From the NCBI GenBank assembly GCA_949474265.1, contig CASXBC010000001.1:84216-148215 (forward strand): DNA of 64,000 nt. The letters are read 5' to 3'. This document shows, piece after piece, positions 16,113-54,358 of the stretch (position 1 is the first letter of the stretch; the number at the start of each line of letters is the position of its first letter). The position numbers and the translations under genes were made by a program. The DNA comes from an uncultured bacterium. Lineage in GTDB: Bacteria > Bacillota > Clostridia > Christensenellales > UBA1242. The notes under the pieces are model-generated. The model had not been told where the DNA came from and made no database searches. It saw nothing but the letters and a program-made list of their open reading frames with translations.

Positions 16113-16171
16113 AAAAAACATGCAAAAACGCATATTTTTAATTTAAAAACCTTTATTTTTGCATGTTTTTT
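16113..16171. repeat. 16-bp perfect inverted repeat with a 27-nt spacer
   Basis: AAAAAACATGCAAAAA (16113-16128) and TTTTTGCATGTTTTTT (16156-16171) in the divergent zupT / giant-gene intergenic region. Confidence 0.6.
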
Positions 16172-16246
16172 ATAGATTTTCTTTTATTTTTTTGCTACAT
16201 AATTTTAAATAATAAAAAAATCATAAAAAATTAATTAAAAATAGGC

Positions 16247-16273
16247 AAAAACCTGCATTTTTGCAGGTTTTTT
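16247..16273. terminator. terminator-like hairpin in a divergent promoter region
   Basis: AAAAACCTGCA TTTT TGCAGGTTTTT, an 11-bp stem, symmetric and so bidirectional. Confidence 0.5.
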
Positions 16274-16346
16274 GAAAAGCTTTTTCATTCGGTAATATCT
16301 AACAAGTAAGACTTTTTGCAAAATACATTTATTTGTGAGGTTTAAA

Positions 16347-16375
16347 TTGACTTTTTTAGTTAATTATATTAATAT
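16347..16375 (+). promoter_or_regulatory. candidate promoter of the giant gene
   Basis: TTGACT (16347-16352), 17 nt, TAATAT (16370-16375). This would give a leader of about 150 nt. Confidence 0.45.
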
Positions 16376-16449
16376 ATATTACGTAAGAAAAATTGCAGAA
16401 CTAACTACAAAAATCTTACATAAAAATTCTGATAGTGCGACCGATAAAC

Positions 16450-16475
16450 CTCTCAAGGACTTTTGAGAGTTTTTT
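16450..16475 (+). terminator. leader terminator-like hairpin upstream of the giant ORF start
   Basis: CTCTCAA (16450-16456) GGACTT TTGAGAG (16463-16469) followed by TTTTTT (16470-16475), lying between the candidate promoter and the RBS/ATG at 16530. Confidence 0.4.
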
Positions 16476-16529
16476 GTGTCTAAAAAGATTTTTGTTTTTG
16501 CAGGGCTTATCCAAAAGGAGATTTCTGAA

Positions 16530-19500
16530 ATGGAAAGAATGAGACGTGGTATGTTGTATTTTATCTTGATGGGGATGTTTTTGCTGACAGCTGGTGTTGG
16601 TACCTTTAAACTTGCAGGAAATAATGTGTCTCCAACAAGCGTGGTTGAAGAGGTGGATGAGGTTGACCAATCTGTTTCTGCCAAGGCGGTGACAGAAGTT
16701 ACATTTGATGAAAATTCATCAAGCCTTTCATATCCATCTGGAACGATTTCTGTGGATACAACCTATACATACAAGAACCGTGCTTTTACAAGTGCAATAT
16801 CTATGTCAGGTCTAACGGTAAATTCTGGTATAACTATGAATATTGTTTTTGATGGTTGTTATTTTACTGGGACGATTAGTTTTCCTTCAAGTGGTTTGAC
16901 TTTATCGGGTAATTCAACTTTAAATATAACTTTTCAAGATTGCTATTTTGGACAATATTATGGAAATGCACTTGGCTATACTAAAAGCGGCACAGGTACA
17001 ATGAATGTTTATTGGAATAACTGTATTGCGCGTTTGGGTGGACAGCATTATGGTTTCCTGTATAGTAGTAATAGTGGTGCAACTCACTATTTCAACAATG
17101 TTTTATTTTTAATGTATGGCAGTGGAAGTGGCGGAGGTATAATTTCAAGTAGCGAAACTGTATATTTTAATAATACTTATGCCCCAACTGGTTTTGGAAA
17201 TCATGCAGGAGTGACATATTATACAGATGGGACAGAATTTGCAGATATAAGAACATTTACAAGCGCAAATTCTGACAAATGGTCAACAAACTGGGATTTT
17301 GAGAATAAGTGGATTTATTACAATCACTCTTCTACAACATTTTTGTATGGTTTAGTTCCTGTTACTCGTGCTGGAGCAAAGCATTTGGGTTTGACCAATA
17401 ATGCCATTACTGTTGCCTTGTATGCAAACTTCGATGCGATGACCAAAGACAATGCAAGTGGATATATCAAATATTCACAAGCTTCAAGTGGTGGGTCTGT
17501 CAAACTTGGTGCTGGAAATCACTTCACAAGAAATGGTTACACACATAAATGGGCGTATTCTCCAGATGGGCAAGGTGCAGATGAGTTGACTTTTACTCAG
17601 AATGGCTCAGCTTATGCAATTTGGAATCCAGAGACTTATAGAATTACATATAACGCTGATGGTGGCAGTATTGCTGCAAGCTCAAATTGGTCTGGCAGTG
17701 GTTCAACTGCAATAAGAGACTATACGATTGAACAATCTGTTGTGCTTCCAAGTGCCGGCCTTACAACAAAGAGAGGATATACACTTTCTGGTTGGAAGCC
17801 TAGTTCAACTGTGGGCAATTGGAATTCATCAACAACTTATGCTCAAGGCTCAACACAAACAGGAAAGTATGGTACTGTGACCCTAAATGCTCAATGGACT
17901 CCAAATGTTTATCAAATCACTCTTGATGCCAATGTTGGGAAATTACACATGCCAGATGGTGGAACAAACTCAAATGCAAATCCGCTTGTGGTGTACGAGC
18001 GATTTGGGGATAATTGGTACACAAGTGGCACAAGCTTTACTGATTCAACAAAGATAACTTCGCTTAGTGCATGTCCAACTTTCAGTGGATATGATTTTAA
18101 AGGCTATTGGACGAAACCAGATGGAGATGTTGAAGGAAGTGTGCAAGTTATCAGTGATACCGGAGATTTTATTGCAGGAAAGACAACAATCTTTGCAGAT
18201 GACAACACGGATGATGGCTCTCCAAGGACAGCAAAACTTTATGCACATTGGGAAGGAAAAGAAATTAAGCTTACCTTAAATGGAAATGAGGCAAACACAG
18301 CTTGCTCCCACACTGAAATCTTTGTCAAATATTGGGAGAATGCACTTCATGCAAGCGGAAGTGACAGTGTAAGTTTGACTTTGCCAACGAAAATTGGTTA
18401 TATCTTTGGTGGTTGGACGAAGACTTTGAATGGAGATGATGTGGTTGTTGATGCAGGCACTTCTCCTACACTTGTTTCTGGAACATCTTATACTGATATG
18501 GATGAGACAAAGTTGGTTTGGGTAAATCCAACAGATGTCACTCTTTATGCTAAGTGGATTCCGAATATTTACAAGGTTACACTTGATAAAAATGGTGGAA
18601 CAGGTGGAAGTGACCAATATTGGTATAAGTTTAATATAGAGAAATTTTATTCAGATGAAGAGTGTACAAGTCAGATAACATCAATTGAGATGCCAACAAG
18701 AAGAGGAGATACTTTTGAGGGATATTATACATCGCCAGACCCAAGTGCTTCTGCTCAATATGTAAACCACAATGGAGTTTGGGTGAATGGCGGTTTGTAT
18801 AACACTCCTTCAAATTCAACACTTTACGCAAAGTGGACTCCAAACATCTATGAAATCACATTGGATTCTGGGCTTTATAATTCTGAAACGGATGAAAATC
18901 CAGCTTCTTCTGCAACTGAAAGCGGCACAGGCACAATGTGGGTTAGATATGATGACGCATGGTACAGTGATGCTCTTTGTGGGGAGGCTCACAAGCTGAC
19001 AACTTTACCTATTATGCCTAGCAAGACAGGTTACACATTTAATGGGTATTGGACAACAAAGATGACCGAAGGAGTGCTTGGAGCAATTCAAGTAGTGGAT
19101 GCTACAGGTAAGATAATAGATGGAACGACAAATATTTTCCATGATGGAATAGAGATTGGAAATAGAAAACTCTATGCACATTGGACTGTAAAAACTTATG
19201 ATATAACTTTCAATTATCAAACTAGTGATGTGAATGGAGAAGCACCAGAGATTATGTTTTCTGGTGATGTTGACACAAGAAAACTTGAAGCAAATAAGGA
19301 CAAGCTTACTGTTGGAAATACTTTGACAATAAGTAATGTTGCTTATGGCTCAACAATCAATGTCACAGTCACTATTCAAGGACTCGACAATGAATTTGGT
19401 AAAAGAAATTTTGTAATTAATTATGGCGTTGGAGCAAATTCTGGAGCCCCAACAATAGACAGTGAGGACCATGCTGAGATAGAGGGTACGATTGAGGATT

Positions 19501-22500
19501 TTGACCAAATCTACAATTTCTATGTTTCTGAAAAGTTTACTTTGACTTTTGATAAAAATGGTGGTGCATGGCAGACTGCAGGTGCTGACGAACTTGATGA
19601 AAATGGAAATATAAAGAAAAACTTTCTGTATGGCCAATCAGTAGATTTAGCAACAATTGACAAACTTACAAGAGACAATTATGAATTTTTGAATTGGAAA
19701 ACTGACAGTGGCAAGGTTTATGAGCCAGCTTCAGTTTACAACCAAAATGGAAATGAAAATGTAAGCGAAATACTTTATGCTCAATGGACAGGAGTTTTGT
19801 ATACCATTAATCTTGATTCAAGCAATGGAGAAAACTCTGTTACAAGTGACCTTTCGCAGATTATTGAAAAATATGGTACAGGTTTCTTCAGAACAACAGA
19901 TTGTTCTGAAGATGAGAACCCATTGATTTTGAAACCTGTTTCAAAAGGTTATGTCTTCCAAGGCTATTATATAATAGAAACAGATGGCAGTGAAAGACAG
20001 ATTGTCAATGCCAATGGAGAGATTGTTGTTGAAAACATTTATTTCAACAAAAACAACACTGACTCTGACAAGAGTGTGACAATTTATGCTAAGTGGGAAG
20101 CTGGGCAATATAAAGTGACATTCAACACAAATGGAAGGGGTACTTTTGCCGCTGATGAAAGTGGTGCTACAGGCCAACCTACCAAAAAACTTGATGTTAT
20201 TTTCAATGCTCCAATTTCATTTAATGTTGAAACTGACAAACTTCAACTTACAGAAGTTAAGGGCTATCAACTTGATGGTTGGTACACAGCGACAACTGAT
20301 GGTGAAAAGATTTTGAATGCAGACGGAAGTTCTGCTGGTGCCTCAAGGTTTATTGATGCGGACGGGAATTGGATTTTTGCTCCAGATTTCACTGTTGAAA
20401 ACATTGATGGCACAGATGTTTTGGTGCAAAACCCAATCATTTTCTATGCACATTGGACACCTATTACATATAATTTTGATATAAACTATAAAGCGTTTGG
20501 CGGAACTGACAGTGCAACTGATTTGAAAGTTACGGTTACCGGCGGTGCAACTGTTTCAAGTGAAACTCTTAAGTATGAAGATGGAAATGGAACAGTTAGA
20601 GTTTCTGCGGTTTATAATGACAATCTAACTAAGATTACAATTACTCTTGAATCTTTGGCAGGTAAAAACTATATCATTTCTGGAAGTGCAATTTCAGGAA
20701 TTGGAGAACTTTCAAATGTGTGTCCATTTGATTGGCTTCCTGAGGCAAGTGGCTCTCAAGATATTTATGTGCTTCAACTTTACACAATTGCTTATGATGT
20801 AAATGGTGGAAGCGGAACAGTGGCTGAAACTTCAAAAGCTTATGGCATTGATGCGGCTGTCACTGCAAATGTTCCAACTCGCACAGGACATAGCTTTGTA
20901 AATTGGAACACAGCTCAAGACGGAAGTGGGACAACTTATGATGCAACAATTGATGCTAAAAAGATGTATTCCGTTGATGCTGATGTAACTTTGTATGCTC
21001 AATGGCAAGCAAATTCTTATTCAATTAAATATGACAAAAACAAACCAACAGATGCAAGCTCAGAAGTGGCTGGCACTATGGCAAATTCAGACCATGTTTA
21101 TGATGTTGCTAAAAACCTTTCAACAAATGGCTATTCATTGACAGGTTGGACTTTCGTTGGTTGGAATCTTCAAGCGGATGGCACAGGCAATGGTGGCATT
21201 CATTTTGCTGATGGAGCTGAAGTTTTGAATCTTACTACTGATAGTGATGGGGAAGTTGTGCTTTATGCTCAATGGACAAGAAATAAATACAATGTAGTTT
21301 ATGACAAGAATGCTCCAACAAATGCAAGTGGAACAGTTGAAGGAACAATGAATCCAACAAACTTTGAATATGACATAGAAAAAGCATTGAGTAAAAATGC
21401 TTACATGCTTAGGGGTTGGGCTTTTAACGGTTGGAAAACTGAAAATGGCGTAAGTTTTTCTGATGAACAACTTGTGAAAAATCTTTCAGAAACAAACAAT
21501 GCGGTTGTTACACTTTATGCACAGTGGGTTGCAGAAAAGATAACTGTTACATTTGATGTGGATGCAGAAAATACAGGTGCAACTGTAGACCCTGAAACAA
21601 AAGAATACAATTATGATGATGAATATGGTGAGCTTCCAACTCCAACAAGAGTGGGTTATGAATTTGTTGGCTGGTACACTGCAAGAGATGCAGGAGAACA
21701 AATCTCTGAGAAATCTGCGGTAGTTGGAGAAAAGGATTCAGCAACAGGAAATTATGTTGTGACAATCTATGCTCATTGGAAAGCAAAAGTTTACACTGTT
21801 ACATTTGATGCAAATGGCGGAAGTGCAACAAACAGTGTTTATGTAAGATATGATGATTCTAAAATATATTCTACTTATACAAATGGACAGGTAAGTGGAG
21901 AAGTTTCTGTGCTTGCAATAACCTCTACAAGAGAGGGTTATGATTTTGATGGTTGGACTGAAACTCAAAATGGTGGAGATGTTGTAATCACTAAAGACGC
22001 AGGGCTTAGAGGCGTTGGAAATAATTATGTGCAAACTGTGAATTCACTTGCTGTTTGGAAACATGATGCGGATGTTACACTTTTTGCAAAGTGGATTGTT
22101 CATGTGCTTGCAATAACTGCAAACCTTCATGATGGAAATGGCTTTGTGGTTGATGAAACTACAGCTGCTGGCTGGACTATTCAATCATCAAACACAACAG
22201 CAACCAAAGAAGTAAATTATGGAGAAACTTATGGTGCTTTGCCTGTGGTTTACAGAAACGGATATACATTCCTTGGATGGTCAAAATCTGAGGATTCTAC
22301 TACAGTTGATGTTTTGCCAACAACGATAATGGGAAATCTTGACCAAGTCATCTATCCTGTTTGGGAAGCAGAAACTTACACTGTTAAATATTTTGACACT
22401 GACGGTGTAACTGAAATTGCTGGTCTTAGTCCAACAACCTATCAAATTATTACTGCAACGGCACTTCCTATCACAACAAAAGATGGTTATAAATTCGTAG

Positions 22501-37500: not shown

Positions 37501-40500
37501 ACGGAAGTGACTTTGAAATCATTGAAACATTGCAGACTTCACTTACAGGAAGGGGAATCTCAGACACAATGGTGACAGAAGCAATGGTTAAGGCTCTTTT
37601 GCCAAACGGAGAATATCCAAGCTTTGCTGGATACAACTTCAAGAATGTTGTGCTTGGAAATATCAATGCAAATGGAGATTCTAGAATAGTTGTCAACTAT
37701 GAAAGAAAATATTTCCGTTTGAGTGTGACAAAGGGCGTTGGTGTTGATAGGGTAAATGTTTCTTGCAATGAAACCCTTGCACCTGAACAAGATGCTGACT
37801 TCTACTTCTCAAAACTAGAAGACAACTTGTATCAAGTGAGATTTGGTGCAACAATCACATTGGAAGCTGTCATTGACAACAATGGATATGCTTTTGACAG
37901 TTTTGTTGCAACAGGGGCTACACTTGAAACAACTGACAACACTGCAAGCTTTGACTTTGGTACAACAGATGTATCAGTTTCAGCAAATGGAGTGCCAAAA
38001 CATTACACAATTACATTCAACGGAAATGGCGGACAAATATTGTCTGGCGATACTACATATATTCAACAAGATGCTGAAGGCGAAAACAATGTTGTATATA
38101 TGAAAGATGTAAATCTTGTTGCAAACAGATTTACAAGAACAGGATACAACTTTGCTGGTTGGGCAATTTCACAAGCAAATGCCAATGCAAAAGTTGTTGA
38201 CTATGCAGATTTGGATACTTACAAAATGACAGAGTATTCAGAAAATGTTGATTTGTTTGCTGTTTGGACTCCTATCCCTTACAGAATTATTCTTGAAGGA
38301 AGCAATGGAGTTGACACAAGCAAAGCGACAATTGTTGTTGGTGACACTGTTATGACTTATGTTGATGGCGTGACAGTTGACTTTGACAGTGTGGTAAAAA
38401 TTTATTACACTTACACTAATGACGAAGGTCAAACAAACAGCGTTGTTGCTGGTGGTTATGACTTTGCAAACTTTGAAGTTGATGGAACTGTTGTTGAAAG
38501 CGAAAAAGCTTATTATGAGTTTACTCTTAAGGGCGAAACAGTAATAAAACTCAATGCAACAGCAAGAACTGACACAAAGTTTGTTGTAAAATATACATTG
38601 CAAAATCTTGATGATGAAGACTACACTGAAGTGGTTGCTGACAGACAAACTCTTGAAGGAGAAACTGACAGAATTGTAGATTACAACTATCTTAAGAATG
38701 TTCTTAATGTTGTAAATAGCTATGAAGGTTATGCTTACTCTTCAGTTGTTGATGCAATCAGTGGCGGAACTCCAATCATCAGATATCACAATGATGACAA
38801 AAATTATTCTGAAGTTGAAATCAGATATGTAAGACTCAACTATGACCTTACACTCAACTCTTCAGTTGGTGTTCAAGAATTTTTTGCACAGGGTGGAACA
38901 AGCGGAAATCTGTTTGAAGTAAACGGAATTTATAAAGTTACTTATGGCACTCCTGCAGACATTATTTTGAATATGTATCCTGGTTATAGCTTTGATGGAC
39001 TTACAGTTGTTGTTTCAATGATGGAAGGCTCTGTTGCACTTACTAATGATGGAAAAACATCATGGCAACTTACTGAAAAAGCAGATGGATTCTACTTTGG
39101 AGAAAAACTTGTTGTTAAGTTGACTCGTGATGGCAGTGCTAGTGGTGCGATGCTCACAATTGGTGATTTCAAACTTGAAAGCATGCCTGCTTATGCAGTT
39201 GAAATCACAACTTCAAGTCATGCAAATGATTATGAGGTTACTTACCACAGAAATCTTAATGATGAGGATGTTGAAAGCAACACAGACAATTGGACTTTTG
39301 GACAACCTTATGATATTAAAAACATTAAAACTCTCGGCTGGAGCAAAGCCGGCTATGAGTTTGTTGGTTGGGCAACTTCAAAAGAAAATGCAGACAAGAA
39401 AACCCCTACATACACTTTTGCAGATGACAACGACCTTAGCTTTGACGCTTACGACACAGTTGGTGATTTAGAGCTTTGGGCAGTTTGGGCTGCAATTGAT
39501 GTTGATTACACAATTGAATATTACTTTGAAAAGGTTGACGGAACTTACGAACTTAAAGAAGAACACACTGCTCATCTTAAAGGAAAGACAGACAGCACAG
39601 CAAACCATGTTCTTCTCAATGACTCAGCTATTGCTGGTTTTGAGTTTGATGAAGAAAATGCAAACAATCTGCTTTCTGGCACAATAAAAGCTGACGGAAG
39701 TTTGACTCTTAAAGTTTATTACTCAAGATTGTGGTATGAATTTATGCTTGGTTATGATGGCGGTTTTGAAACAGTTTCAATAACTGTTGACGAAAACAAT
39801 ATCAAAAACCTCAAAAATGACACAGAAAAATATCTTATTACTGCAAGCATTAAATATGGTGCGACAGTGTCAATAACCAAACAAGTTAAGGAAGGATATG
39901 AATATGTTGGAATGACAACAGTTCCTGCTGGACTTACAGTGACAAATGACAGTTTTGAAATGCCAATCTCAAACGTTTCAATTTCTATGACAACAAAGCC
40001 AATGGAATTTACATTGACATTCAAGACTGAATTTGGTGGTTATACTGATAGTGAAGGCGTACTTCAAACAACTCACGAGCAGAAATTTACATACCTTACA
40101 AAACAAAAACTTTGGAAAAATCAATTTGAAAGGTCTGGTTTTGTCTTCCTTGGTTGGTCTTATGAAAATGCAGATAATATTGACTATGTAGATGAAGCAG
40201 AGTTTGAATACAATATTGCAAGAGACATTGAGTTTGTTGCAGTTTGGGAAGCAAACAGAGACACTCCATTTACAGTAAACTATTATTTGCAAAAGATAGA
40301 TGGCACTACTTCACTCTATCAATCAATGAAACTTCAAGGTGTGACAGGTGAGCCTGTTTCAATCAGATATGTTGAAGAAGGCTTTAAACAACTTAATGTA
40401 GAACATAAAGGCTATAAGTTTGTTGGGCTTAGAGAGACAGACACAATTGTATCAGGTGACGGAAGCACAGTTGTTTCTGCTGAATATGCTTTGGCAAACT

Positions 40501-43500
40501 TCAATGCAAGCTTTGATTTTGCAGACAGCTTGGCTGTTGCAGGAATAGCAAAAGTTGAGTTTACTTATGGCTCAACAAGCGGAGAAGTGACAAAGACTGT
40601 TGTCTCAGGTTCAAGCGAGACAGTGCAATATAATGCACCTCTTACAATCAACATTTCATTTAATGATGGATACAAACTTAAGTCATTGACTGCAACAGGA
40701 AAAACTTTCTCAAATGTTGTTAGATATCCAGATGCTGATGGAAACATCAAATTTAATATGCCTGCTGAGGATATTGAGATAACTATTGAAGTTGAAACTG
40801 AAGAATATCAAATTAAGTTCTTCAAAAACTTCAAGAATGATTTGTCTTACACAACTCAAGATGTGAGATATTTGGAAGATAATGTAAAACTCTCAGGAAA
40901 TTACATTGAAGTTGGCTATCAACTTCTCGGTTGGGCAACAACTACAAATGGTGCTGTGAGCTATGCAATTGGCGAAACCATTGCAAAATACAACGAGACT
41001 CAAGGACTTGAACTCTATGCAGTATGGCAAGCAAATTCTTACACAATAGCTTTCAGCAACAATGGTGGCTCTGAGACAATTGCAAACATAACAACAGCCT
41101 TTGACACTGTGACCATGCTTCCAAATGAAACTACATTTAGAAAGACAGGTTATCAATTTGTTGGTTGGTCAACAAATCCAAACACAAGCGAAGTGATAAA
41201 TGTAAACAGTGATTTGGATATTTCTGCTAGAGGTATTTACTTCAGCAGAGCAAACAACAGATATTATGTTTTGAACTTGGCAAACGGCACAGAAGATGAC
41301 AATTATGTCACTCTCTATGCAATCTGGTCTGCAATTAAATATAATGTAACACTTTCATTCTCAGAAACTTCAACAACAGAGAAAGAACTTGGTGAATTTA
41401 CTTATGACCAAGATTACACGGTTCAACCATTTACAACTCTTGGTTGGGCAAATCAAGGTTACACTTTCCAAGGCTGGTATTATTATGCTGATGGCGGTGT
41501 AAAACAAGAGATACGTTGTGGAGAGACAGAAACTTGCACAGTTAGAAATCTCAGTGCAACCAAAGAGAAAGATGTTAGACTTTATGCTATTTGGGGACTT
41601 GGAGAGGCAGAATTTACAATCAGAATTTTGCTTGAAACCATGAATGGAAACTATGGCGAAGCTTCTGGTCAGTATATTGATATTACAGGAAACAAGATTC
41701 GCACAGAGACATTGCTCACAAGTGAATATGTTTACAATCAATATCTTATGAACAGTGCTGCTGGCACAATTGAAGGTTTTGAGTATTTCAAAACATACCA
41801 AGACTCTCAAACAGTGCTTGGAGATGGCACAACTGTTATTAAAGTTCAATATGCAAGAAGATATTTCAGCTTGATTGTCAACCTTGACAGCAGTGTTTCA
41901 AAAGTTGAAATTGCAACAGAGTACAACACTCATATTCTTGATTCAAAACTTTCAAGTGCAACAAGAACAGTTTGGTCAGTGTTGTTTGGAGATAAGGTTA
42001 CTTTGACCTTGACAGAAAACCAAGGCTATAAAGATGCCCTTATTGAACTCGTGGCAGACGAAAGCGTGCAAGGGGTAAATCTAAACGGAAAGACTTTCTA
42101 TATGAAAGGTTCTGACGGAAACAAAGACCTTGGTGGAAACATCACAATCAATGCTTTGGCTGTGCCAAGAGATGATACAGAATATTCAATCAACATCTTT
42201 AAGCAAACACTCAATTTGGATTATGCAAATCTTGCAAGCCACGTGATTAAAGGCACAGGCAGAACAGGAAGTGCAATCAATAGCGACACGGTTAAAGTTT
42301 TGGTTGAAGGAAACAGCTCAATTGATTTTACAGGCTTTACATTTGCATCAATCACTTTGGTTGATGAAGTGATTAAAGGTGATGGAAGCTCGGTTGTTAA
42401 TGTCTTCTATACAAGAGAAAGATTTGAGGTCTCTGCATCAACTACAAACACAAAAGCAATAAATCTTCTCTTTGAGACTGCTCAATATTTATATCAAGAA
42501 TCTGCACTCATTAGGTTTAGACTCAACAAGGGATATTCTCTTGATGAGACTACAGGCATAGCATTCTATGACAACCTTGGCAATGCAGTTTTAGATGCAG
42601 ATTATACTGTTGTTAAAGCAGAGACAAGCACAGGTGTTTGGGATTATACTATCAACCTAAAAACTCCTGCAAAGAATGTAAGAGTGGCAATTGTTCCTAC
42701 TGTAAATACAAATACAGAATATACAATTGAATACAAGTTCCAGAGCTTAAATCTTGGCAATGAATATGAAAGCTTGCCTGCTTACCCTGCTATTAAGAAA
42801 ACAGGAAGGACAGAGCAATTGATTACTAATGCAGACATTGACTTAGAAGCTTTACAAGTTGAAGGCTTTACTGCAGATAGAACTTCTCTTGGTGAAGAAG
42901 GTGTTGAGATAGCTGGAGATGGTTCAACTGTAATTACAATTTACTTCAACCGTATTAAGAAGAATGTAAATGTAATCTTTGTTGATGAAAACAATGGCTA
43001 TGTTGCAGACTCATTCACAATTCTTGCTCAAAACAAAGTGCCTGAAGTTGTTTCAACAATGATTTGGTCAGTTGGTTTTGGTCAAACTTTGACAACAAGC
43101 TTTAACATCTCAGAAGGCTTTACATTCAAAGGCTATCAAGTAAATGGAAAAGCTCAGACAATTAATGTGACAGGAAGAACAATGACCTATGTTGTTGGCT
43201 CCGCTGATGACATTAATGATGAAGAAATTAATATTACAATCACAATCGAAGCAAAGACAGACATTGTTTATACCCTTATCTACTATGCTCAATCTTATGT
43301 TGGCGGACAATATACTTATGGAGACCCTGTGCTTACAGTTACAAGAAGAGGCACAGCGAATGCTTACCTTTCAAAAGAGTATATCCAAGAAAACTTCATT
43401 GATGGACTTCCTTCTCTTCCTAACTACAGAGAAGAAAACTTCAAGGGTGTGGTCTTTGGATTCTATACTGCAACAATGTATGGCAATCAAGTTGACAACT

Positions 43501-44705
43501 CAAATATCTTCATTGCTGGAGATAGGAGTACAACAATCAAATTCTATTATGCTCTCAGACTTATTTCAGTTAAGATTAATGAGTTTGATGACACTATGAT
43601 TGACTCTATTAAGGGTGAAGGAAACTATGCTATGGGTGCAGAAGTTACAATTTCTGCAACTCCAAAGAAGGGTTATAAGTTTGTTTCTTGGGATATTATC
43701 AAAGGTGGAGATGTTGCAAACAAACTCACAATCTATGAAAGAGAATATACTTTTGTGATTGATGATGATGTTGACATCACGCTTAATGTTGAAGCTGATG
43801 TTTCAGATACAACTTACACAGTTGAGTATTATCTGGAAGTGCTTGGACAAACAGACTATCAAACTCCATTCTTATCAGAAGTTAAAGATGGCGTGACAGA
43901 AGCAGAAGTCAATATTGCTCACTTAATCAAAGATTTTGATGGCTATCAATATGACAGATTTACTTGCAACAATAGTGACAACATCATCTATGGTGACGGA
44001 ACAACTGTCGTAAAACTCTATTACTTACTTCGTGTAGTTGAATTTGAAGTGAGAAAAGAGGCAGGTATTGCGACTATCACAGTTGAAGCTGGAAACAATG
44101 AAACTCCTCTTGATGTTGTAAAAGTTGATATTGAAACAGGAGTTTACACTTACAGAACAAAGCACACAGGAAAAGTAAGCTTGTCTGTGACATTGGACAA
44201 AGGAAGCGATTTCCAGGGCTGGAGAAAGAATGGAAAACTCATTCAAGGCTCAAATGAGACTGTTGGCTACATGCTTGACATAACTTATGATACACAGTAC
44301 ATAACTGCAAGCTCAGCTACAAAACAAGTCATTATCATTTATGAGCCAAACAACGGCACTTCACAATCAAGAACTTATATTTACAACTATGGTGATATTG
44401 CACAGCTTATCAACAGTCCATTTACAAACACAAAGAAAGCTACTTTCTTGGGCTGGTCAACTTCCCCTGATGGAGATGTAGTTTACTTTGCTGGAGATAC
44501 TGTAAAAATTGATGAGTTCTTCTTGGAAGGCTCAAATGGTTCAGCAGTTACACTCTATGCAGTATGGAGAGTAAGTGGTGTTGTAAGCCGTTGGTGGATT
44601 TGGCTTCTGATTGCTATTCTAATCATTCTTATACTCATTTTGATAATCGTTTGGATTATTCATAAGAGAAGAAAACATAGGACTAGAATGATGGCTAAAC
44701 AATAA
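16530..44705 (+). CDS. giant modular cell-surface protein (about 9,391 aa): Listeria-Bacteroides/InlB B-repeat plus MucBP-like modules, C-terminal TM anchor
   Basis: Single open frame (ORF track 16476-44705). AAAGGAG at 16514-16520 favours the ATG at 16530 (MERMRRGMLYFILMGMFLLTAGV signal/anchor). Reiterated GY.F.GW ... LYA.W units. Y.IEYY...GDGS.V..YY.R units. C-terminal WWIWLLIAILIILILILIIVWII-HKRRKHRTR. All antisense ORFs are under 180 aa. Confidence 0.9.
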   Translation: MERMRRGMLYFILMGMFLLTAGVGTFKLAGNNVSPTSVVEEVDEVDQSVSAKAVTEVTFDENSSSLSYPSGTISVDTTYTYKNRAFTSAISMSGLTVNSGITMNIVFDGCYFTGTISFPSSGLTLSGNSTLNITFQDCYFGQYYGNALGYTKSGTGTMNVYWNNCIARLGGQHYGFLYSSNSGATHYFNNVLFLMYGSGSGGGIISSSETVYFNNTYAPTGFGNHAGVTYYTDGTEFADIRTFTSANSDKWSTNWDFENKWIYYNHSSTTFLYGLVPVTRAGAKHLGLTNNAITVALYANFDAMTKDNASGYIKYSQASSGGSVKLGAGNHFTRNGYTHKWAYSPDGQGADELTFTQNGSAYAIWNPETYRITYNADGGSIAASSNWSGSGSTAIRDYTIEQSVVLPSAGLTTKRGYTLSGWKPSSTVGNWNSSTTYAQGSTQTGKYGTVTLNAQWTPNVYQITLDANVGKLHMPDGGTNSNANPLVVYERFGDNWYTSGTSFTDSTKITSLSACPTFSGYDFKGYWTKPDGDVEGSVQVISDTGDFIAGKTTIFADDNTDDGSPRTAKLYAHWEGKEIKLTLNGNEANTACSHTEIFVKYWENALHASGSDSVSLTLPTKIGYIFGGWTKTLNGDDVVVDAGTSPTLVSGTSYTDMDETKLVWVNPTDVTLYAKWIPNIYKVTLDKNGGTGGSDQYWYKFNIEKFYSDEECTSQITSIEMPTRRGDTFEGYYTSPDPSASAQYVNHNGVWVNGGLYNTPSNSTLYAKWTPNIYEITLDSGLYNSETDENPASSATESGTGTMWVRYDDAWYSDALCGEAHKLTTLPIMPSKTGYTFNGYWTTKMTEGVLGAIQVVDATGKIIDGTTNIFHDGIEIGNRKLYAHWTVKTYDITFNYQTSDVNGEAPEIMFSGDVDTRKLEANKDKLTVGNTLTISNVAYGSTINVTVTIQGLDNEFGKRNFVINYGVGANSGAPTIDSEDHAEIEGTIEDFDQIYNFYVSEKFTLTFDKNGGAWQTAGADELDENGNIKKNFLYGQSVDLATIDKLTRDNYEFLNWKTDSGKVYEPASVYNQNGNENVSEILYAQWTGVLYTINLDSSNGENSVTSDLSQIIEKYGTGFFRTTDCSEDENPLILKPVSKGYVFQGYYIIETDGSERQIVNANGEIVVENIYFNKNNTDSDKSVTIYAKWEAGQYKVTFNTNGRGTFAADESGATGQPTKKLDVIFNAPISFNVETDKLQLTEVKGYQLDGWYTATTDGEKILNADGSSAGASRFIDADGNWIFAPDFTVENIDGTDVLVQNPIIFYAHWTPITYNFDINYKAFGGTDSATDLKVTVTGGATVSSETLKYEDGNGTVRVSAVYNDNLTKITITLESLAGKNYIISGSAISGIGELSNVCPFDWLPEASGSQDIYVLQLYTIAYDVNGGSGTVAETSKAYGIDAAVTANVPTRTGHSFVNWNTAQDGSGTTYDATIDAKKMYSVDADVTLYAQWQANSYSIKYDKNKPTDASSEVAGTMANSDHVYDVAKNLSTNGYSLTGWTFVGWNLQADGTGNGGIHFADGAEVLNLTTDSDGEVVLYAQWTRNKYNVVYDKNAPTNASGTVEGTMNPTNFEYDIEKALSKNAYMLRGWAFNGWKTENGVSFSDEQLVKNLSETNNAVVTLYAQWVAEKITVTFDVDAENTGATVDPETKEYNYDDEYGELPTPTRVGYEFVGWYTARDAGEQISEKSAVVGEKDSATGNYVVTIYAHWKAKVYTVTFDANGGSATNSVYVRYDDSKIYSTYTNGQVSGEVSVLAITSTREGYDFDGWTETQNGGDVVITKDAGLRGVGNNYVQTVNSLAVWKHDADVTLFAKWIVHVLAITANLHDGNGFVVDETTAAGWTIQSSNTTATKEVNYGETYGALPVVYRNGYTFLGWSKSEDSTTVDVLPTTIMGNLDQVIYPVWEAETYTVKYFDTDGVTEIAGLSPTTYQIITATALPITTKDGYKFVGWKPFVSAGAWDTNKVYTNSDTFVGMYGSISLCAQWTPEVYEVTLAHNGGSYNGSTANFNFYYKYQQSELGYFTTADCNVAFDATALKATRTGYLFEGYFDGSTSFIDADGNITSHFYDFLNGKTVTAKWQAKTYNISLNANTGISDTSTTTSVVATYDSNELIPNVIVPPTKVGYIFGGWTKTLNGDDFVISSDGNLIGTTDYVATVNGNVVWHNDSETTVVLFAKWTAAQTTIMLDSNGATTAGTTSVVATYDSATLSSEITNPQRTGYTFDGWTIQNGTAAVIGVNGKLVAGITGYTSSNGEWIFDNELNKTNSITLYAKWIANRYKISFMNGDQAVLTGSSDTVYAEYDSNQLFKNEIGTEKANPPTISAAGYTFAGWYTENQNFDNQVIDENGALCVSTITGILENGLWKSASEQTFYAKLGATPYTLTYEANGGTWKTTESGDPVSSTQAYDITETFNLYGYNQVSRDGYTLAWRVKSYSGDSSSLWRNATGTFPVGQQISGQYGNVVLEAVWTAKTTAITLVLNNAGGDGQLTNSHSATYGQVVSDISGDATNRPEGITTVAWKKGYTFQGYYTADKDGVRVFDANGKILSNVDKFTDAEKKWIYIESSGVSEASDVLNLYAQFTPNVYSFNLAIGAGVDYVLINGACDASGTALSSNYKVSNTSTIYAQYGANIVLQAFAKNGYAIRNFTMGLSEATSAVGEIKNTTEGSFAEYSFVFQDGESIDISKNAAGEPATYIAANAESTNVKYEVYYKLQNSASGYANELLVGQFVTMAGSSLSIETVKALVSDNLIVGYYYSGNDFTTTNKPVAGNGGEKDNATSFIVQGDGSLKIYLYYDATKYEIVYNTNGGSIGDGAKVEYYYYEQFTLPGLANEEGNITCTMQKAGYAFAGWKVFENVGNWSTTEYFDVDNAFVSNKYGRVTLVAQWVDNTYDLEFGNVYNSFEVKILTSEGVVKETVIVTSANNIIKDINFTDIILTSTKPLAHKVDGTALASSVTTANNPTRAGYVWGIENSEGVINLFSIGTTYENGFSYNGTWYDSTLAGATGCHAFSGLEATAGATAKLNLLWSAQEYTVTLNANAEDGVVSPTEVTVKYDEAYGELPIATRPGYTFDGWYKEVGLSNKVEATTIVSTASDHTLFAKWKENQYTIVLNGNGGAVDTVDGFVDLSGIKGADNTWRLTATYSREGTFNATLNRKGFTLKGWALSDGTSTTGITAQGTISGSNGSFTVTGTKVLNLTTQANAEVYLYAQWEADYVEITLNAGNGTVSPTLLYAKFGAKYSEVSTEKGGVGLGDLPIASRNGYGFDGWFTTLTAGNQITKDSVVETDSYDTATNTYKVTLYAHWSANKYNATLEKQGGNGGTSDIWYLFDTEKYYSDEGCTTLLANETLAIPNRDGYSFGGYYTASNGAGIQYVNNSGKIVNSLYSVVYSNTTLYAKWVANSYMLTYEVNDGDELSSISKVYGTSFSATELPTPTKTGYDFVGWYSDAALTNSVTAGMLFNVGNANFADVGTADTTATIYAKWTPSPNTPYTIYYYGQKLGVFDEELNETNCSLIESVNGKGVTGDSVTAPVKAYTGFVSPEEQTKVITADGKMAIYYYYARDTRNLNLVKGKGIAEVSASGIGVSSDGTKVQYGATVTLSAIASAGYSFSGWTVTNNTVTITNNSYLHEVLVDVEITANATAVLTDYTIEIYQMNLSGGYETAPTKTVVKSATTDTDVSVDAATYRDTGFAFDEENTNNILSNKINGSGNTVFKIYYKRNQYKFDLAGCFNGLNAENINPNNVDITVNGQMTAAQNDIYIDVYYGSTIVITNLDLHSAYKYTGYAVTDAEFVSAEAFSDITFVVSAKNVLARLYFESKAAFEISYDVADGTNQTSNPTSYKASPNEQTIVLADPTRAGYEFVSWDETITWLGDDHGEVLPTVEGTALTIPANAYGSIKLKAVWKALTYNITYVLDGGTLESGAISTYTIESTDKLPAVTKEGYSFKNWKATTVSGNWQINDVVNAGDAITGKYGDVTLTATWQTDAVEVIFNANKGAGSTAITMNINLDVTTGQAKAYIAYMDTNFYTGWSGNTRPNHTTGTVVKPVASRNGYVFNGWYTEANGGVQVLTDAGVLNPNVAGLTDANGNWISTAMTGTQLYAQWTKLSNIEVTFDLNLTSSEGEDTSLTPSSKTVTFDETYGALAIATRTGYTFGGWFKDKSCAASTEVTADTLVSNHQNHTLYAKWTINQYTLTINLDGGLYGDEETVEPITQNYKSTYNLKNPTKTGYGFDGWVLEGAGSVNAETGVFTFGAGNATLTATWTSKTYTITLSQEGEGVTAGTSSVTAIFNSNVISESITNPTRTGYTFEGWTATDGGTDFIITIAGKYAADAVEGFIKDGKWVGTENKTIYAKWTANSYTISYVAGDETLYGTATGTTAETDAIYDRDVKLATNGFSLKGYTFAGWKDENGNVYEAGTTLTKPNFSSAVNGKAVLMATWTANKYNISVSGANDEAETIEVEYGRAYSDSELSFITDVEKYNKIGYNLTGFAEVDGVFVIDSEGLLIKNLSTATGVLITDGNIWAYANNLSLEAKYSAKEYTLHFNIADTRPDEQESSAPSVDGEASKKIYYDQTLGQDGVWKSATASGYYFNGWSFRNDVRPVPYSQLTDEAKAIVDANKDLYVFTRGEVTDEDDYTIDYVYVLTQFNSDKNIAEPLLGQPLKISEVEFATSTTMVNDKASFWASLNANGEVTIYATWIGRTDIKYEIYFMQEEILYDDAATNFDELEKDSYNQAILTKGQKVNYDLKTYKVVSSVEKNDALISDDVEHYIVDKYGFEGFSFYKYEYIGKIIQAEGEGVKTKIYGFYDRQSFNLTLSKTKGVTSIKAEGDGVSPKADARNDEISYTVKFGATVSLVTTLKVGYTFDKWETVAGFTGVETKNDAVEGLTRTDNFTMPATTLGVNIKAVATANKDTKFTVEYYTENIDDSDFSKFGESVEMAGETDTEIDLSSIKLTNDEGFTYSYYTVKSSAIDPETRDGSLNIEGDGSLVIKIYYTRNSYTLTINYVKAGNKVVRPAVTSVLKYGKTYSVDSPVVTGFEIEAGKEVVSGTMTASDTTINVLYTANNYTITYVTEGGEFIGTANVDYTVNFTIEDQIKLASLTKTGWSFTGWTVTAIDTDAYVDVSGEAGKFVLGHVYKESAIDAGMFGNVTLTANWTERGDIAYKINFFLMDVKGSYTDVEAIVVSRDDGMTGKPLSIEVGDDNTVLTVNGKDYSYDGFKVNETLSNLNVVVNGDGTTEFNVYFDRNQYSLEIEKQLGIKSVKVKVGDNAEVEYSGKLDIYYGENIKISVTMENGSSWEGYDVEGTTPTGLLTTNDLANLVQEVSMGLGNAKLIAKASTNSYTLTIDANGGLYQDNETLEVRQTYQSSYVFDTPTRIGYTFDGWTLESGAYGKITESTASDGQTIYTYTFGAGDDTVTAKWKVNRYEVVLNFNDKNFSNGSTFATIDKIKTNSNEVLSIVGGKLALFAVYGESYAKLYTTIDGDDFVSFEEFDVKENAEEIKVERTGYVLSGWTTALENGTKVSVDTVCQVVNTTEVFATWNTKKFTLTISKPLDKLIVDVANATKLSDNEYEVLFDSTVTLTATTETGYHFASYSIGEDELSDQANFSYTYTNAENVTIVATAEANTYTIVYNANGGSGAVENTVATFDGETTLSSGAGFDKNGYTISGWLYEATGNTYALSSKTTDNFTSENGSTVTLLAVWTANTYKVVFDTNGGSDVGEVTATYDVAVAITQETTKQGWDFLGWSKVNGKTLADVTEITEENIEDMTDYLLENKMAGGLYLYKGTFYFFNLKSGNNEEITLFAIWDEGDANYEIEYYLENFDGSFVLDKDTTEFGDDFVSHSETVASKTNATATIDTSVTYKGFTLDLSAPNTLTEGLVLADGSLKLKLFYRRNVYTVDFKHQDLGVESATATTTTENGAGANSNTFKYNSNVTITVKESKGYRFEEIIFGDTHLTETTYSFVITDNMQFEVKVTALPFDYLVSFEFETLEGGAFEKGEIEDVTLSADVDTVITYDMIAEAVETAQASIVGFTYKNFDEDKRVLPVVDETDEAQVVVVRFSRNAYDLTLSRVLGVKTLTATENGEVVKKTNEDLENKSTTYSVKYQAEVVLNLEVEQGYSFKSWSDEIVKGTADKLEGVVSGFKIEQMPAENKTIFAELSTLSVEFTIVKKLQNFAGDGWIDDPTLNETKEAPTGSELESLDSFNLKDVEGFTRSTFEQSEPIKGDGSSKVVVYYLRNSINVTIALSEGVASVQVVVSEEDGKYSFTKEFTNATEDKSFTIKYGATATISATATNAGYTLTGFNGGVSQDPDDKHYYFVAGAEDINIVATAENNKYNIVYNANGGMLAGSSEDTFKQENVIYNKTTTLLENRFTKAGYGFESWNTAADGSGTTYERLASFTYEEIGDLTLYAQWAPIKYNVVYSPNGGEGNMDGHNDVVYDQEITLKENNFTRTGFTFAGWSYTDSEGEKVIKNAGDKVKNLTSNSSETVIINAEWNENSYNVAYNSNYTSIDSASTDVSKTVETVRYTEEFGLRNVTDSALNFAILGYEFVGWTLDKSDVSNPQKAGTLVSKLATGTTDDNLVTYYAIWKPVHYFIAFDANGGHGDMTQIDATYGEEVSLPANTFTKTGYDFAGWALSSTGEVVYADQASDVKNLATTTDAVATLYAKWTATPYTITVNANKGTFNGLELADDKYVYTYTIEDNITLLDETNLTRRGYSLLGFTYSQTEGNWADRFVGSIVFDDLDENSLAAGLYGDVQLTASWSVNQYKLTINYVYLNGTPSDASDIPSYSTYVDFEGEYSVTTQEIAGYTPDKLVVSGTMGAEDIVETVTFSPNSYTIEFNLNNGVGSSQASFKYNDKDITSFTVVFDDIYANAKLDGVDEKVWNIVPTRPGYRFDGWFSSSALDKEVLASDVVKILATTTLFAKWTAVETTYYVDFKFETLDGSDFEIIETLQTSLTGRGISDTMVTEAMVKALLPNGEYPSFAGYNFKNVVLGNINANGDSRIVVNYERKYFRLSVTKGVGVDRVNVSCNETLAPEQDADFYFSKLEDNLYQVRFGATITLEAVIDNNGYAFDSFVATGATLETTDNTASFDFGTTDVSVSANGVPKHYTITFNGNGGQILSGDTTYIQQDAEGENNVVYMKDVNLVANRFTRTGYNFAGWAISQANANAKVVDYADLDTYKMTEYSENVDLFAVWTPIPYRIILEGSNGVDTSKATIVVGDTVMTYVDGVTVDFDSVVKIYYTYTNDEGQTNSVVAGGYDFANFEVDGTVVESEKAYYEFTLKGETVIKLNATARTDTKFVVKYTLQNLDDEDYTEVVADRQTLEGETDRIVDYNYLKNVLNVVNSYEGYAYSSVVDAISGGTPIIRYHNDDKNYSEVEIRYVRLNYDLTLNSSVGVQEFFAQGGTSGNLFEVNGIYKVTYGTPADIILNMYPGYSFDGLTVVVSMMEGSVALTNDGKTSWQLTEKADGFYFGEKLVVKLTRDGSASGAMLTIGDFKLESMPAYAVEITTSSHANDYEVTYHRNLNDEDVESNTDNWTFGQPYDIKNIKTLGWSKAGYEFVGWATSKENADKKTPTYTFADDNDLSFDAYDTVGDLELWAVWAAIDVDYTIEYYFEKVDGTYELKEEHTAHLKGKTDSTANHVLLNDSAIAGFEFDEENANNLLSGTIKADGSLTLKVYYSRLWYEFMLGYDGGFETVSITVDENNIKNLKNDTEKYLITASIKYGATVSITKQVKEGYEYVGMTTVPAGLTVTNDSFEMPISNVSISMTTKPMEFTLTFKTEFGGYTDSEGVLQTTHEQKFTYLTKQKLWKNQFERSGFVFLGWSYENADNIDYVDEAEFEYNIARDIEFVAVWEANRDTPFTVNYYLQKIDGTTSLYQSMKLQGVTGEPVSIRYVEEGFKQLNVEHKGYKFVGLRETDTIVSGDGSTVVSAEYALANFNASFDFADSLAVAGIAKVEFTYGSTSGEVTKTVVSGSSETVQYNAPLTINISFNDGYKLKSLTATGKTFSNVVRYPDADGNIKFNMPAEDIEITIEVETEEYQIKFFKNFKNDLSYTTQDVRYLEDNVKLSGNYIEVGYQLLGWATTTNGAVSYAIGETIAKYNETQGLELYAVWQANSYTIAFSNNGGSETIANITTAFDTVTMLPNETTFRKTGYQFVGWSTNPNTSEVINVNSDLDISARGIYFSRANNRYYVLNLANGTEDDNYVTLYAIWSAIKYNVTLSFSETSTTEKELGEFTYDQDYTVQPFTTLGWANQGYTFQGWYYYADGGVKQEIRCGETETCTVRNLSATKEKDVRLYAIWGLGEAEFTIRILLETMNGNYGEASGQYIDITGNKIRTETLLTSEYVYNQYLMNSAAGTIEGFEYFKTYQDSQTVLGDGTTVIKVQYARRYFSLIVNLDSSVSKVEIATEYNTHILDSKLSSATRTVWSVLFGDKVTLTLTENQGYKDALIELVADESVQGVNLNGKTFYMKGSDGNKDLGGNITINALAVPRDDTEYSINIFKQTLNLDYANLASHVIKGTGRTGSAINSDTVKVLVEGNSSIDFTGFTFASITLVDEVIKGDGSSVVNVFYTRERFEVSASTTNTKAINLLFETAQYLYQESALIRFRLNKGYSLDETTGIAFYDNLGNAVLDADYTVVKAETSTGVWDYTINLKTPAKNVRVAIVPTVNTNTEYTIEYKFQSLNLGNEYESLPAYPAIKKTGRTEQLITNADIDLEALQVEGFTADRTSLGEEGVEIAGDGSTVITIYFNRIKKNVNVIFVDENNGYVADSFTILAQNKVPEVVSTMIWSVGFGQTLTTSFNISEGFTFKGYQVNGKAQTINVTGRTMTYVVGSADDINDEEINITITIEAKTDIVYTLIYYAQSYVGGQYTYGDPVLTVTRRGTANAYLSKEYIQENFIDGLPSLPNYREENFKGVVFGFYTATMYGNQVDNSNIFIAGDRSTTIKFYYALRLISVKINEFDDTMIDSIKGEGNYAMGAEVTISATPKKGYKFVSWDIIKGGDVANKLTIYEREYTFVIDDDVDITLNVEADVSDTTYTVEYYLEVLGQTDYQTPFLSEVKDGVTEAEVNIAHLIKDFDGYQYDRFTCNNSDNIIYGDGTTVVKLYYLLRVVEFEVRKEAGIATITVEAGNNETPLDVVKVDIETGVYTYRTKHTGKVSLSVTLDKGSDFQGWRKNGKLIQGSNETVGYMLDITYDTQYITASSATKQVIIIYEPNNGTSQSRTYIYNYGDIAQLINSPFTNTKKATFLGWSTSPDGDVVYFAGDTVKIDEFFLEGSNGSAVTLYAVWRVSGVVSRWWIWLLIAILIILILILIIVWIIHKRRKHRTRMMAKQ
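17631..24400 (+). repeat. near-pure array of Listeria-Bacteroides (Flg_new-like) protein repeats inside the giant CDS
   Basis: About 22 consecutive units by hand count, each ending in (L/V)(Y/F)A.W followed by ..Y.(I/V)T(L/F)..NGG. The units are degenerate at DNA level (for example 18400 vs 23020 share only about 50 nt of similarity, by eye). Confidence 0.75.
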
Positions 44706-44713: not shown

Positions 44714-44750
44714 ATGGACAGAGATATTTTGTTTCTGTCCATTTTCTTTT
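44714..44750 (+). terminator. rho-independent terminator of the giant gene
   Basis: ATGGACAGA (44714-44722) / TCTGTCCAT (44734-44742) followed by TTTCTTTT, 9 nt after the TAA stop. Confidence 0.75.
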
Positions 44751-44814
44751 TAAAATTTTGTTAATTGCTTTGATTTTTGGTGAAAATATTATAAACTATT
44801 TGCAGGAGGAATTT

Positions 44815-54356: not shown

Positions 54357-54358
<2 letters not shown>
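54324..54358. terminator. terminator downstream of the collagen-like gene
   Basis: AGTCCAACAA / TTGTTGGACT palindrome flanked by A and T runs. Confidence 0.7.

Follow-up and report, generated by a model that had tools for sequence, protein, structure and literature searches.

We analysed a 64,000-nt stretch of DNA (hereafter the window; positions 84,216 to 148,215 of the forward strand of contig CASXBC010000001.1, assembly GCA_949474265.1) from an uncultured bacterium of the Clostridia (Christensenellales; UBA1242), and in particular a single giant gene on its plus strand. The open reading frame (ORF) listing of the window gives this gene as 16476..44705. The original prediction, made from the letters of the sequence, had described one giant ORF of about 9,391 aa with an ATG start and a ribosome-binding site, and the frame does run from an ATG at 16530 to a stop at 44705, with AAAGGAG 9 nt upstream. 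The listing begins at an upstream GTG, which would give 9,409 aa; this GTG (16476) is unlikely to be the start because it lies inside the U-run of a hairpin in the leader. In orthologues the protein starts at the equivalent Met (MDRLKRK...), which supports the ATG at 16530. The encoded protein is acidic, and Thr, Gly, and Ser are abundant in it. The coding region and its parts are as follows.

16514..16520, plus strand: ribosome-binding site AAAGGAG, 9 nt 5' of the ATG
16530..44705, plus strand: giant coding sequence, ATG start, 28,176 nt, encoding 9,391 aa (1.03 MDa, isoelectric point 4.4)
16530..16616, plus strand: N-terminal signal sequence (aa 1-29; MERMRRG, hydrophobic core, AGVG), from hydropathy, with a pattern (MDRLKRK...FGxG) that orthologues keep
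16617..17636, plus strand: N-terminal head (aa 30-369, 340 aa) with an acidic linker, beta-helix-like repeats, a W..WDF..KW.Y block, and half a B-repeat
17637..24386, plus strand: distal stalk (aa 370-2619), 21 Flg_new units and two inserts outside the assigned classes (119 and 136 aa), from hidden Markov models (HMMs) and Pfam
24387..44561, plus strand: proximal stalk (aa 2620-9344), 33 Flg_new, 17 M, 17 B, and 2 MucBP-like units and about five other segments, from HMMs
31644..31850, plus strand: MucBP-like unit 1 (aa 5039-5107), Pfam MucBP 21.8 bits against a cutoff of 23
36954..37178, plus strand: MucBP-like unit 2 (aa 6809-6883), which pairs with unit 1 in a two-copy HMM
44592..44660, plus strand: C-terminal transmembrane helix of 23 residues (aa 9355-9377), hydropathy 3.84
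44661..44702, plus strand: basic tail HKRRKHRTRMMAKQ, predicted from the sequence to be cytoplasmic and kept in orthologue P0152

The frame from the ATG contains no internal stop and one terminal stop. Under the ORF's own base composition, 9,391 stop-free codons would arise by chance with P ~10^-312. The remaining five frames contain 285-973 stops, their longest open run being 198 codons, and open runs in shuffled sequence did not exceed 154 codons. Within the 28-kb ORF no exact DNA repeat is longer than 20 nt, and self-BLASTN gives at best a match of 57 bp at 86%; the lack of internal DNA repeats makes collapse or expansion of repeats very unlikely. The 9,391-aa call is repeated in NCBI assemblies GCA_948691555.1 and GCA_948819365.1 and in ENA assemblies ERZ17754380 and ERZ17754558, and a 271-kb JGI contig carries the gene called at 9,409 aa from the GTG start. 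In all, five assemblies from at least four samples agree on the length of the gene. The comparison of the sequences themselves covers only the flanking and terminal gene segments, which are 99.8-100% identical to the window; judged by their contig names, the assemblies look like short-read metagenomes of one strain, which falls short of long-read proof.

The short-read origin of all assemblies from one strain, a frame switch in one orthologue (L096, below), and a terminator-like hairpin 5' of the ribosome-binding site are what could be cited for an assembly artefact, or for a decaying pseudogene whose product is not made in one piece. We consider this explanation very improbable, given the chance probability of the 28-kb open frame, the lack of DNA repeats to misassemble, the equal called length in the five assemblies, and orthologues (52-62% identity) that are collinear over the first 3,150 and the last 3,880 residues. 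Repeat collapse or misassembly was rejected on two of these grounds, the missing internal repeats and the equal gene length across assemblies. The ORF is thus confirmed as a real, intact giant gene.

A word-indexed protein database of 5.8 billion sequences returned neither the giant protein nor its orthologues, although the contigs that encode them are indexed. Very long proteins are apparently missing from this database, so that "no homologue" results for giant proteins are unreliable there.

To divide the chain into modules, we used HMMs that were trained on the protein's own units and that competed for each stretch. Ninety modules were assigned, covering 82% of the chain: 54 F units (Flg_new-type), 17 B units (Flg_new_2-like, ~95 aa each), 17 M units (~75-85 aa, with the pattern Y.I.YY...GF...I.GDGS.V..YY.R, within window positions 24759-44039), and 2 U units (MucBP-like, YxLTINYV...). 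Seven segments of 88-147 aa fit no assigned class and look like further divergent domains; with these, the total comes to ~97. The original prediction had envisaged roughly a hundred tandem modules of beta-sandwich type. The count stands; the fold name is inexact, as the InlB B-repeat has a beta-grasp-like fold (PMC8900821).

Beginning at the head, the modules follow one another as F x21, B M, F x6, MB MB, F x8, MB M U F MB F F B F F, MB MB MB, F x5, U F, MB F MB F MB F MB, F F F, MB MB MB, and F MB F, after which comes the transmembrane helix. The distal third of the stalk is thus a nearly pure Flg_new array, and in the proximal two thirds M-B pairs are interleaved with Flg_new units.

The Pfam scan was done on ten 940-aa chunks, with gathering scores of 27 bits for Flg_new (PF09479), 23.6 bits for Flg_new_2 (PF18998), and 23 bits for MucBP (PF06458). 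Flg_new matched all ten chunks, nine of them above the gathering score (41.9-156.7 bits) and the tenth at 24.5 bits, with 29 individually significant stretches. The earlier count of about 56 Flg_new units agrees with the 54-58 obtained across the self-trained HMM counts. Flg_new_2 was above threshold in seven chunks (31-46.6 bits). About 20 units had been described as divergent B-repeats; these correspond to the 17 B units, and the F and B profiles are related (hhalign probability 72%, E 3e-5). When the HMM for this third type was iterated freely, it drifted through this homology into Flg_new and its counts were unusable, so the number of B units comes from a model rebuilt on masked sequence. 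In contrast to the two Flg_new families, MucBP did not reach its gathering score in any chunk; the best match was a single unit (aa 5042-5104) at 21.8 bits. The motif families that had been proposed are real by HMM, but the literal motifs match far fewer units (four in the case of Y.[IV]T[FL]..NGG).

The mean identity between units within the protein is 24% and the maximum 48%. Orthologous positions in the sister species are 55% identical, which is above the identity between units of the same protein. Since the units are less alike internally than they are to their sister-species counterparts, the array appears ancient rather than recently amplified. The identical tandem DNA repeats of Periscope proteins, which go with changes in copy number, were not found in the ORF. 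Low identity between neighbouring domains is expected in tandem arrays that fold co-translationally. The long stalk of repeated domains by which fibrillar adhesins are recognised (Monzon et al.) is present here in the form of the 90 modules.

The M units had been labelled MucBP-like in the original prediction, which put their number at about 20. The family itself is real, with 17 units. However, 0 of the 17 match MucBP, or any shared Pfam family, at E<=1, and in hhalign the M profile shows no relation to the Flg_new, Flg_new_2-like, or MucBP-like units (probability at most 2%; 0.3% for the MucBP-like units). We therefore rejected a MucBP identity of the M units at the sequence level. The sole Pfam MucBP match belongs to a different, fourth type of unit, namely the two-copy U type.

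One M-B pair was modelled with AlphaFold2 from an alignment of 15 internal pairs. The model has a predicted local distance difference test (pLDDT) score of 93.8 and consists of two all-beta domains. In Foldseek its nearest PDB folds were the Mub type-2 repeat (3i57), YwfG, pilins, SraP, and the InlB B-repeat, with low template modelling (TM) scores of 0.3-0.5 (3i57, E 1e-3 and TM 0.29; YwfG, TMq 0.47). The modelled pair thus weakly resembles the Lactobacillus Mub type-2 repeat at the level of the fold. Sequence searches of the PDB with the M-B and M profiles gave no matches.

A profile of the 17 M units was also searched against 1.84 billion representative proteins and retrieved 4,776 at E<=1e-3, 1,579 of them at E<=1e-10. 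The proteins elsewhere that contain M are mostly 1,100-6,900 aa long, with 5-50 copies. Eight of them were scanned with Pfam. Their M regions are free of Pfam annotation, and the partner domains are Flg_new, Flg_new_2, RCC1 propellers, a papain-like protease (Peptidase_C1) with a lectin domain, and MucBP. Given its occurrence in ~4,800 clusters, M appears to be a stalk module that is widespread but left without annotation by Pfam.

The whole protein has only two hydrophobic segments, one at each end, in agreement with the hydrophobic N-terminus and the C-terminal membrane helix with basic tail that had been described before. At the N-terminus, MERMRRG is followed by a 17-aa hydrophobic core. 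No Cys occurs before residue 110, hence there is no lipobox, and YSIRK or KxYKxGKxW signals were not found with NCBIfam. The C-terminus reads WWIWLLIAILIILILILIIVWII and then HKRRKHRTRMMAKQ. In P0152, an orthologous C-terminus of 60% identity, the transmembrane helix, the basic tail, and the ...MAKQ end are kept. An LPXTG-like motif is absent within 45 residues of the transmembrane helix (the last weak pattern is at aa 9312), and no sorting-signal family of the LPXTG, PEP-CTERM, or Firmicu-CTERM type was matched in NCBIfam at E<=1. As far as the sequence goes, the protein appears to possess the export signal and the C-terminal anchor that are looked for in fibrillar adhesins, and both ends are kept in orthologues.

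The head had no family match or PDB sequence match (Pfam E<=0.01, NCBIfam E<=1, PDB E<=1). Word-indexed searches for homologues, with the single sequence and with a 10-sequence profile, gave only one fragment, P0001, and a scan of metagenome contigs gave none. P0001 was considered as a 359-aa short form and rejected, since its stop falls in an Illumina adapter at the end of the contig. With few homologues, the alignment for the AlphaFold2 model of the head held 2 sequences, and the rear half remained unmodelled: residues ~51-230 have a pLDDT of ~70-94 and form short repeated strands, whereas the rear is below 50. The rear half contains the W..WDF..KW.Y block, which is conserved in the clade, and the half B-repeat. 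All Foldseek neighbours of the head model are right-handed beta-helices (polysaccharide lyase family 3 (PL3) pectate lyases, pectin methylesterase, chondroitinase B, pentapeptide-repeat proteins, and the P22 tailspike), and none is significant (E 0.04-0.7, TM 0.15-0.24). The repeats NIVFDGCYF, NITFQDCYF, NVYWNNCIA, HYFNNVLF, and VYFNNTYA in the head sequence are consistent with a beta-helix.

Since PL3 pectate lyases, pectin methylesterases, chondroitinase B, and the P22 tailspike are its top matches, the N-terminal beta-helix could be the catalytic or glycan-cleaving head (pectate-lyase-, pectin-methylesterase-, or tailspike-like) of a cell-tethered, polysaccharide-active enzyme, mounted on a long stalk. 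M-module proteins elsewhere do carry enzymatic heads, such as the Peptidase_C1 with a lectin domain. However, the head matches are all non-significant, the sequence searches of Pfam, NCBIfam, and the PDB gave nothing, pentapeptide-repeat and adhesin beta-helices score equally well, and a catalytic motif was not identified. We regard an enzyme as quite improbable.

The giant gene is flanked upstream by nrdD-nrdG-dut and a divergent zupT, and downstream by a gene for a diaminopimelate (DAP)-dehydrogenase-like protein and by tmk. As had been noted for the immediate neighbours, no sortase, secretion (accessory Sec), glycosylation (glycosyltransferase), or chaperone gene was found; this holds for the entire 64-kb window, and the flanks, like the remainder of the window, consist of housekeeping genes.

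We located relatives by a scan with ZupT, using one genome per GTDB species, and fetched ~10 kb around each of the 25 closest loci. The best ZupT match (84%) was to the metagenome-assembled genome (MAG) "uncultured Christensenella sp. MGBC114398", followed by Catabacter and Clostridia MAGs. At 16 of the 25 loci a giant ORF is divergent from zupT and runs off the fetched 10 kb; these ORFs exceed 3,100 aa in most cases and measure 1,300-2,650 aa at three shorter loci. At four more loci a giant ORF with Flg_new lies on the opposite side of zupT, for a total of ~20 of 25. The relatives' giant ORFs share the signal MDRLKRK...FGxG and, in most, a head of 300-460 aa; 19-21 F units follow the head, and then B or M in several. 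Several relatives share the first 21 Flg_new units and one B unit.

Collinearity with the window protein extends over 3,156 residues in the closest relative, L015 (55% identity). In L096 it covers residues 5507-9391 (52-62% identity), and the genes downstream are the same ones. The order of modules is conserved between species, and the gene is without DNA repeats prone to changes in copy number. Synteny and orthologues across the relatives argue for a conserved, syntenic, and fast-evolving core gene of the lineage rather than a strain-specific island.

The giant gene is preceded and followed by the following signals.

16347..16375, plus strand: promoter-like site, TTGACT-17 nt-TAATAT, from the sequence
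16383..16419, plus strand: predicted 5' leader hairpin P1, GUAAGA...UCUUAC, from RNAfold
16450..16476, plus strand: terminator-like hairpin and U-run in the leader, CTCTCAAGGACTTTTGAGAG TTTTTTG, 5' of the ribosome-binding site
44714..44752, plus strand: intrinsic terminator, 13-bp stem and T-run, 9 nt past the stop

A leader of ~150 nt lies between the promoter-like site and the ribosome-binding site. At the equivalent position the relatives have a near-consensus AAATTGAC(A/T)-17-TATAAT (TTGACA-17-TATAAT). Ten related leaders were compared (L015-L019, L022, L025, L030, L033, and L034), from species with a ZupT identity of ~60-70% (84% for the nearest, L015). The 5' hairpin was predicted by RNAfold in 9 of the 10, with three sequence variants of the stem; covariation is weak, with about one compensatory event (A-U to G-C). 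In the terminator-like element, the CUCUC...GAGAG stem, the U-run, and the GCGU that follows are nearly invariant in the ten leaders and the loop varies; since the stem is conserved in sequence, it too has weak covariation support. There is a single copy of this motif in the window and a single copy at each related locus, and every copy is in the leader of the giant gene, which is not expected by chance. A search of positions 16003-16600 against Rfam 15 gave no match at the gathering score, the best being a generic hairpin at 29 bits against 54. An 11-nt perfect inverted repeat (ACAAAAATCTT / AAGATTTTTGT, 16407-16417 and 16485-16495) brackets the leader terminator hairpin. One of its arms overlaps the 3' arm of the 5' hairpin, so that an alternative fold of the leader is possible.

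From this arrangement we infer that the giant gene is a monocistronic unit. Its leader is a candidate attenuator, antitermination element, or mRNA-stabilising element: it would attenuate or gate the entry of polymerase into the 28-kb gene, and its 5' hairpin may shield the long mRNA. Within the ORF, terminator-like sites are as frequent as expected by chance, and an argument for processive antitermination from internal terminators is thus unsupported. Two strong palindromic, AT-flanked hairpins lie in the intergenic region, 5' of both zupT and the giant gene (16108-16172 and 16247-16272; AAAAACATGCAAAAA...TTTTTGCATGTTTTT and AAAAACCTGCA-N4-TGCAGGTTTTT). An invertible promoter was rejected, as the intergenic inverted repeats are short AT-rich hairpins and not flanking pairs of the inverton type.

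Variation between strains was seen in L095 (ENA ERZ12802766, NODE_39367), a 2.6-kb conspecific contig from another sample that was compared with window positions 15270-17600. The two sequences agree closely (96-100% identity) in zupT, in the intergenic region and leader, and in the signal peptide. From ~16770 onwards, identity falls abruptly to 46-60% at the nucleotide level (49% for amino acids) and stays there through the head. An apparent stop in L095 is an Illumina adapter, AGATCGGAAGAGCACACGTCTGAACTCCAGTCAC, left at the end of the contig. On the evidence of this one contig, the tip looks like a case of allelic replacement, as would be expected of an exposed domain that binds a ligand or is targeted by immunity. 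Diversification of the tip by a diversity-generating retroelement (DGR) was dismissed on reasoning: hundreds of residues are involved, with a divergence of ~50%, and the changes are not adenine-targeted.

The conservation of the locus bears on a second explanation, in which the protein is a structural component of the envelope and not a ligand-specific adhesin. It would then be comparable to a surface coat, or to staphylococcal Ebh, for which a role in envelope integrity is reported, and the long array would form a hydrated brush or a tether that sets the spacing between cells or between cell and particle. This explanation would fit a single-copy gene with a constant place beside zupT in ~20 of the 25 closest relatives, and the order of 21 F units and then B is kept at only 22-29% identity. 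The near-consensus promoter looks constitutive, recent repeat expansions are absent, and the acidic character of the protein and its high content of Thr, Gly, and Ser would fit as well. However, a tip that is allelically replaced between near-identical strains points to a specific, exposed interaction, and Flg_new and the Mub and pilin-like neighbours of the M-B model are stalk folds of adhesins. On balance we think a purely structural role unlikely, though the most credible of the alternatives considered here.

Our preferred reading, to which we give a probability of roughly 65%, is that the product of the gene is a giant fibrillar protein of the cell surface, exported by Sec and anchored by its tail (type I), that acts as an adhesin or a tether. 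The host is an uncultured gut bacterium of the Clostridia and is probably spore-forming. Transcription would start at the near-consensus promoter, cross the conserved leader, and end at the strong terminator after the stop, with the leader setting or gating polymerase entry and/or stabilising the very long mRNA. The protein would be exported by Sec and cleaved after the small-residue motif G-x-G, and it would take up a type-I topology with the basic tail in the cytoplasm. Its ~97 domains would be arranged as beads on a string; at ~3.5-4 nm each, we estimate a length of ~0.3-0.4 um if the chain is extended. The stalk would present the beta-helix-like, allelically variable head far from the cell, where the head would bind a glycan or a ligand on a partner cell. 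The Flg_new and M-B modules may add multivalent weak binding. We read the array as a stalk because the nearest folds of the M-B pair are stalks of Gram-positive surface proteins, and the tip as exposed to ligand or immunity because the head has 46-60% nucleotide identity while its flanks are 96-100% identical.

Several points weigh against this adhesin or tether. The head model is confident for ~180 residues only and its Foldseek matches are non-significant (E>=0.04), and no known adhesive domain, such as fibrillar adhesins carry distal to the anchor, was found in the Pfam, NCBIfam, and PDB searches of the head. With an uncleaved signal, the protein would be tethered to the membrane at both ends and its head would not lie at the far end. 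Given the strong terminator-like hairpin in the leader, the gene might be mostly silent. The L096 orthologue, from a sister species (ENA ERZ28613423, scaffold_3826), switches frame near the 3' end, at nt ~9935-9978 and ~520 codons before the end, so that the gene call is split into a partial 8,386 aa and a further 507 aa; either a sequencing error or a genuine frameshift may be the cause. Lastly, a syntenic core gene with a fixed order of modules fits a structural role in the envelope equally well.

A more far-reaching version of the adhesin or tether, which we offer as a speculation with rather long odds, is that the protein, far from being a sporadic adhesin of single strains, forms a clade-wide core organelle of this Christensenellales-like gut lineage. 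In it, a length-conserved tether of ~0.35 um would use its swappable beta-helix head to catch one specific partner, which might be a syntrophic methanogen that consumes H2, a glycan of the host's mucin, or a particle of food. The M module would be a new family of stalk domains, and the gene would be gated by a new leader RNA, whose 5' hairpin and invariant CUCUC/GAGAG terminator would act as a conditional or processive-antitermination switch.

Giant proteins with Listeria-Bacteroides repeats have already been mentioned for gut Clostridia (West-Roberts et al. 2023, bioRxiv 10.1101/2023.11.21.568195). Like the present protein, they come from Clostridia in mammalian gut metagenomes, are very large PF09479 repeat proteins, and have been suggested to bind at the surface. 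They are longer, at 10,000-30,000 aa compared to 9,391 aa, and the single paragraph given to them does not deal with architecture, anchoring, synteny, or regulation. The M module, the transmembrane tail anchor, and the conserved leader are additional features of the present protein.

At 1.03 MDa, the protein belongs, as the original prediction had proposed, to the size class of the largest bacterial adhesins; staphylococcal Ebh, which the prediction named, and Embp are of this class. These, too, are single-chain surface proteins of ~1 MDa with ~50-100 tandem domains and of comparable length (320 nm is predicted for Ebh; PMC9302970). However, Ebh and Embp consist of alpha-helical FIVAR/GA three-helix bundles, whereas the present protein is all-beta, and there is no sequence relationship.

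Previous work has placed Flg_new among the stalk domains of fibrillar adhesins (10.1101/2021.12.07.471604) and has described it as an adhesin-like domain associated with the gut (PMC9723798). The present protein shares with Flg_new-stalk fibrillar adhesins the signal, the N-terminal head, the repeat stalk, and the C-terminal anchor. It differs from them in that no known adhesive domain was found in its head, that its anchor is a plain transmembrane helix instead of LPXTG, GW, or SLH, and that it is 10-50x larger than typical members. The Lactobacillus Mub/MucBP proteins are similar in their tandem two-domain all-beta repeats of ~180 aa, and two units of the present protein come near the MucBP threshold; in contrast, the M units have no MucBP sequence match, the TM-scores are low, and LPXTG is missing.

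An N-terminal beta-solenoid head on a long stalk is known from the giants of Apilactobacillus and from serine-rich repeat proteins (SRRPs; PMC12863079). Giant1-5 of Apilactobacillus kunkeei and the SRRPs resemble the present protein in the beta-solenoid head, the very long repeat stalk, and the exchange of head sequences. Their stalks, however, are mostly alpha-helical or Ser-rich and glycosylated, they end in DUF5776 or LPXTG, and the Apilactobacillus giants are encoded in a cluster of several giant genes.

Three further genes of the window were noted. A BclA-like exosporium protein with a Collagen GxT-repeat region and a BclA_C domain is encoded at 54357-55550 on the minus strand; this gene accounts for a rise of the GC content to a local peak of 0.43. 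Near-identical strains have versions of 397, 412, and 421 aa, a variation in repeat number of the kind that the giant gene is without. A small ORF at 10891-11331, minus strand (132-146 aa), contains only the Spo0A_C DNA-binding domain and no receiver domain. An 815-aa ORF at 59150-61597, plus strand, has no Pfam match at E<=1e-4.

Giants with Listeria-Bacteroides repeats in gut Clostridia, Flg_new stalks, and N-terminal beta-solenoid heads were known before. New here are the conserved leader, the tip allele, the clade-wide synteny with a fixed order of modules, and the unannotated M family. Few gene products of gut anaerobes have been studied as little as their megadalton surface proteins, which are often missed by short-read assemblies and by length-limited databases. 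The present gene is a clean example, with divergent repeats, clear boundaries, and its own promoter and terminator, and it is conserved across an uncultured lineage. This makes it a good model for three questions: how fibres of this kind are exported and become anchored when there is no sortase, how an mRNA of 28 kb is made and kept intact, and how strains exchange their tips. Two candidates for new family definitions, the M module and the leader hairpin, are concrete and testable.

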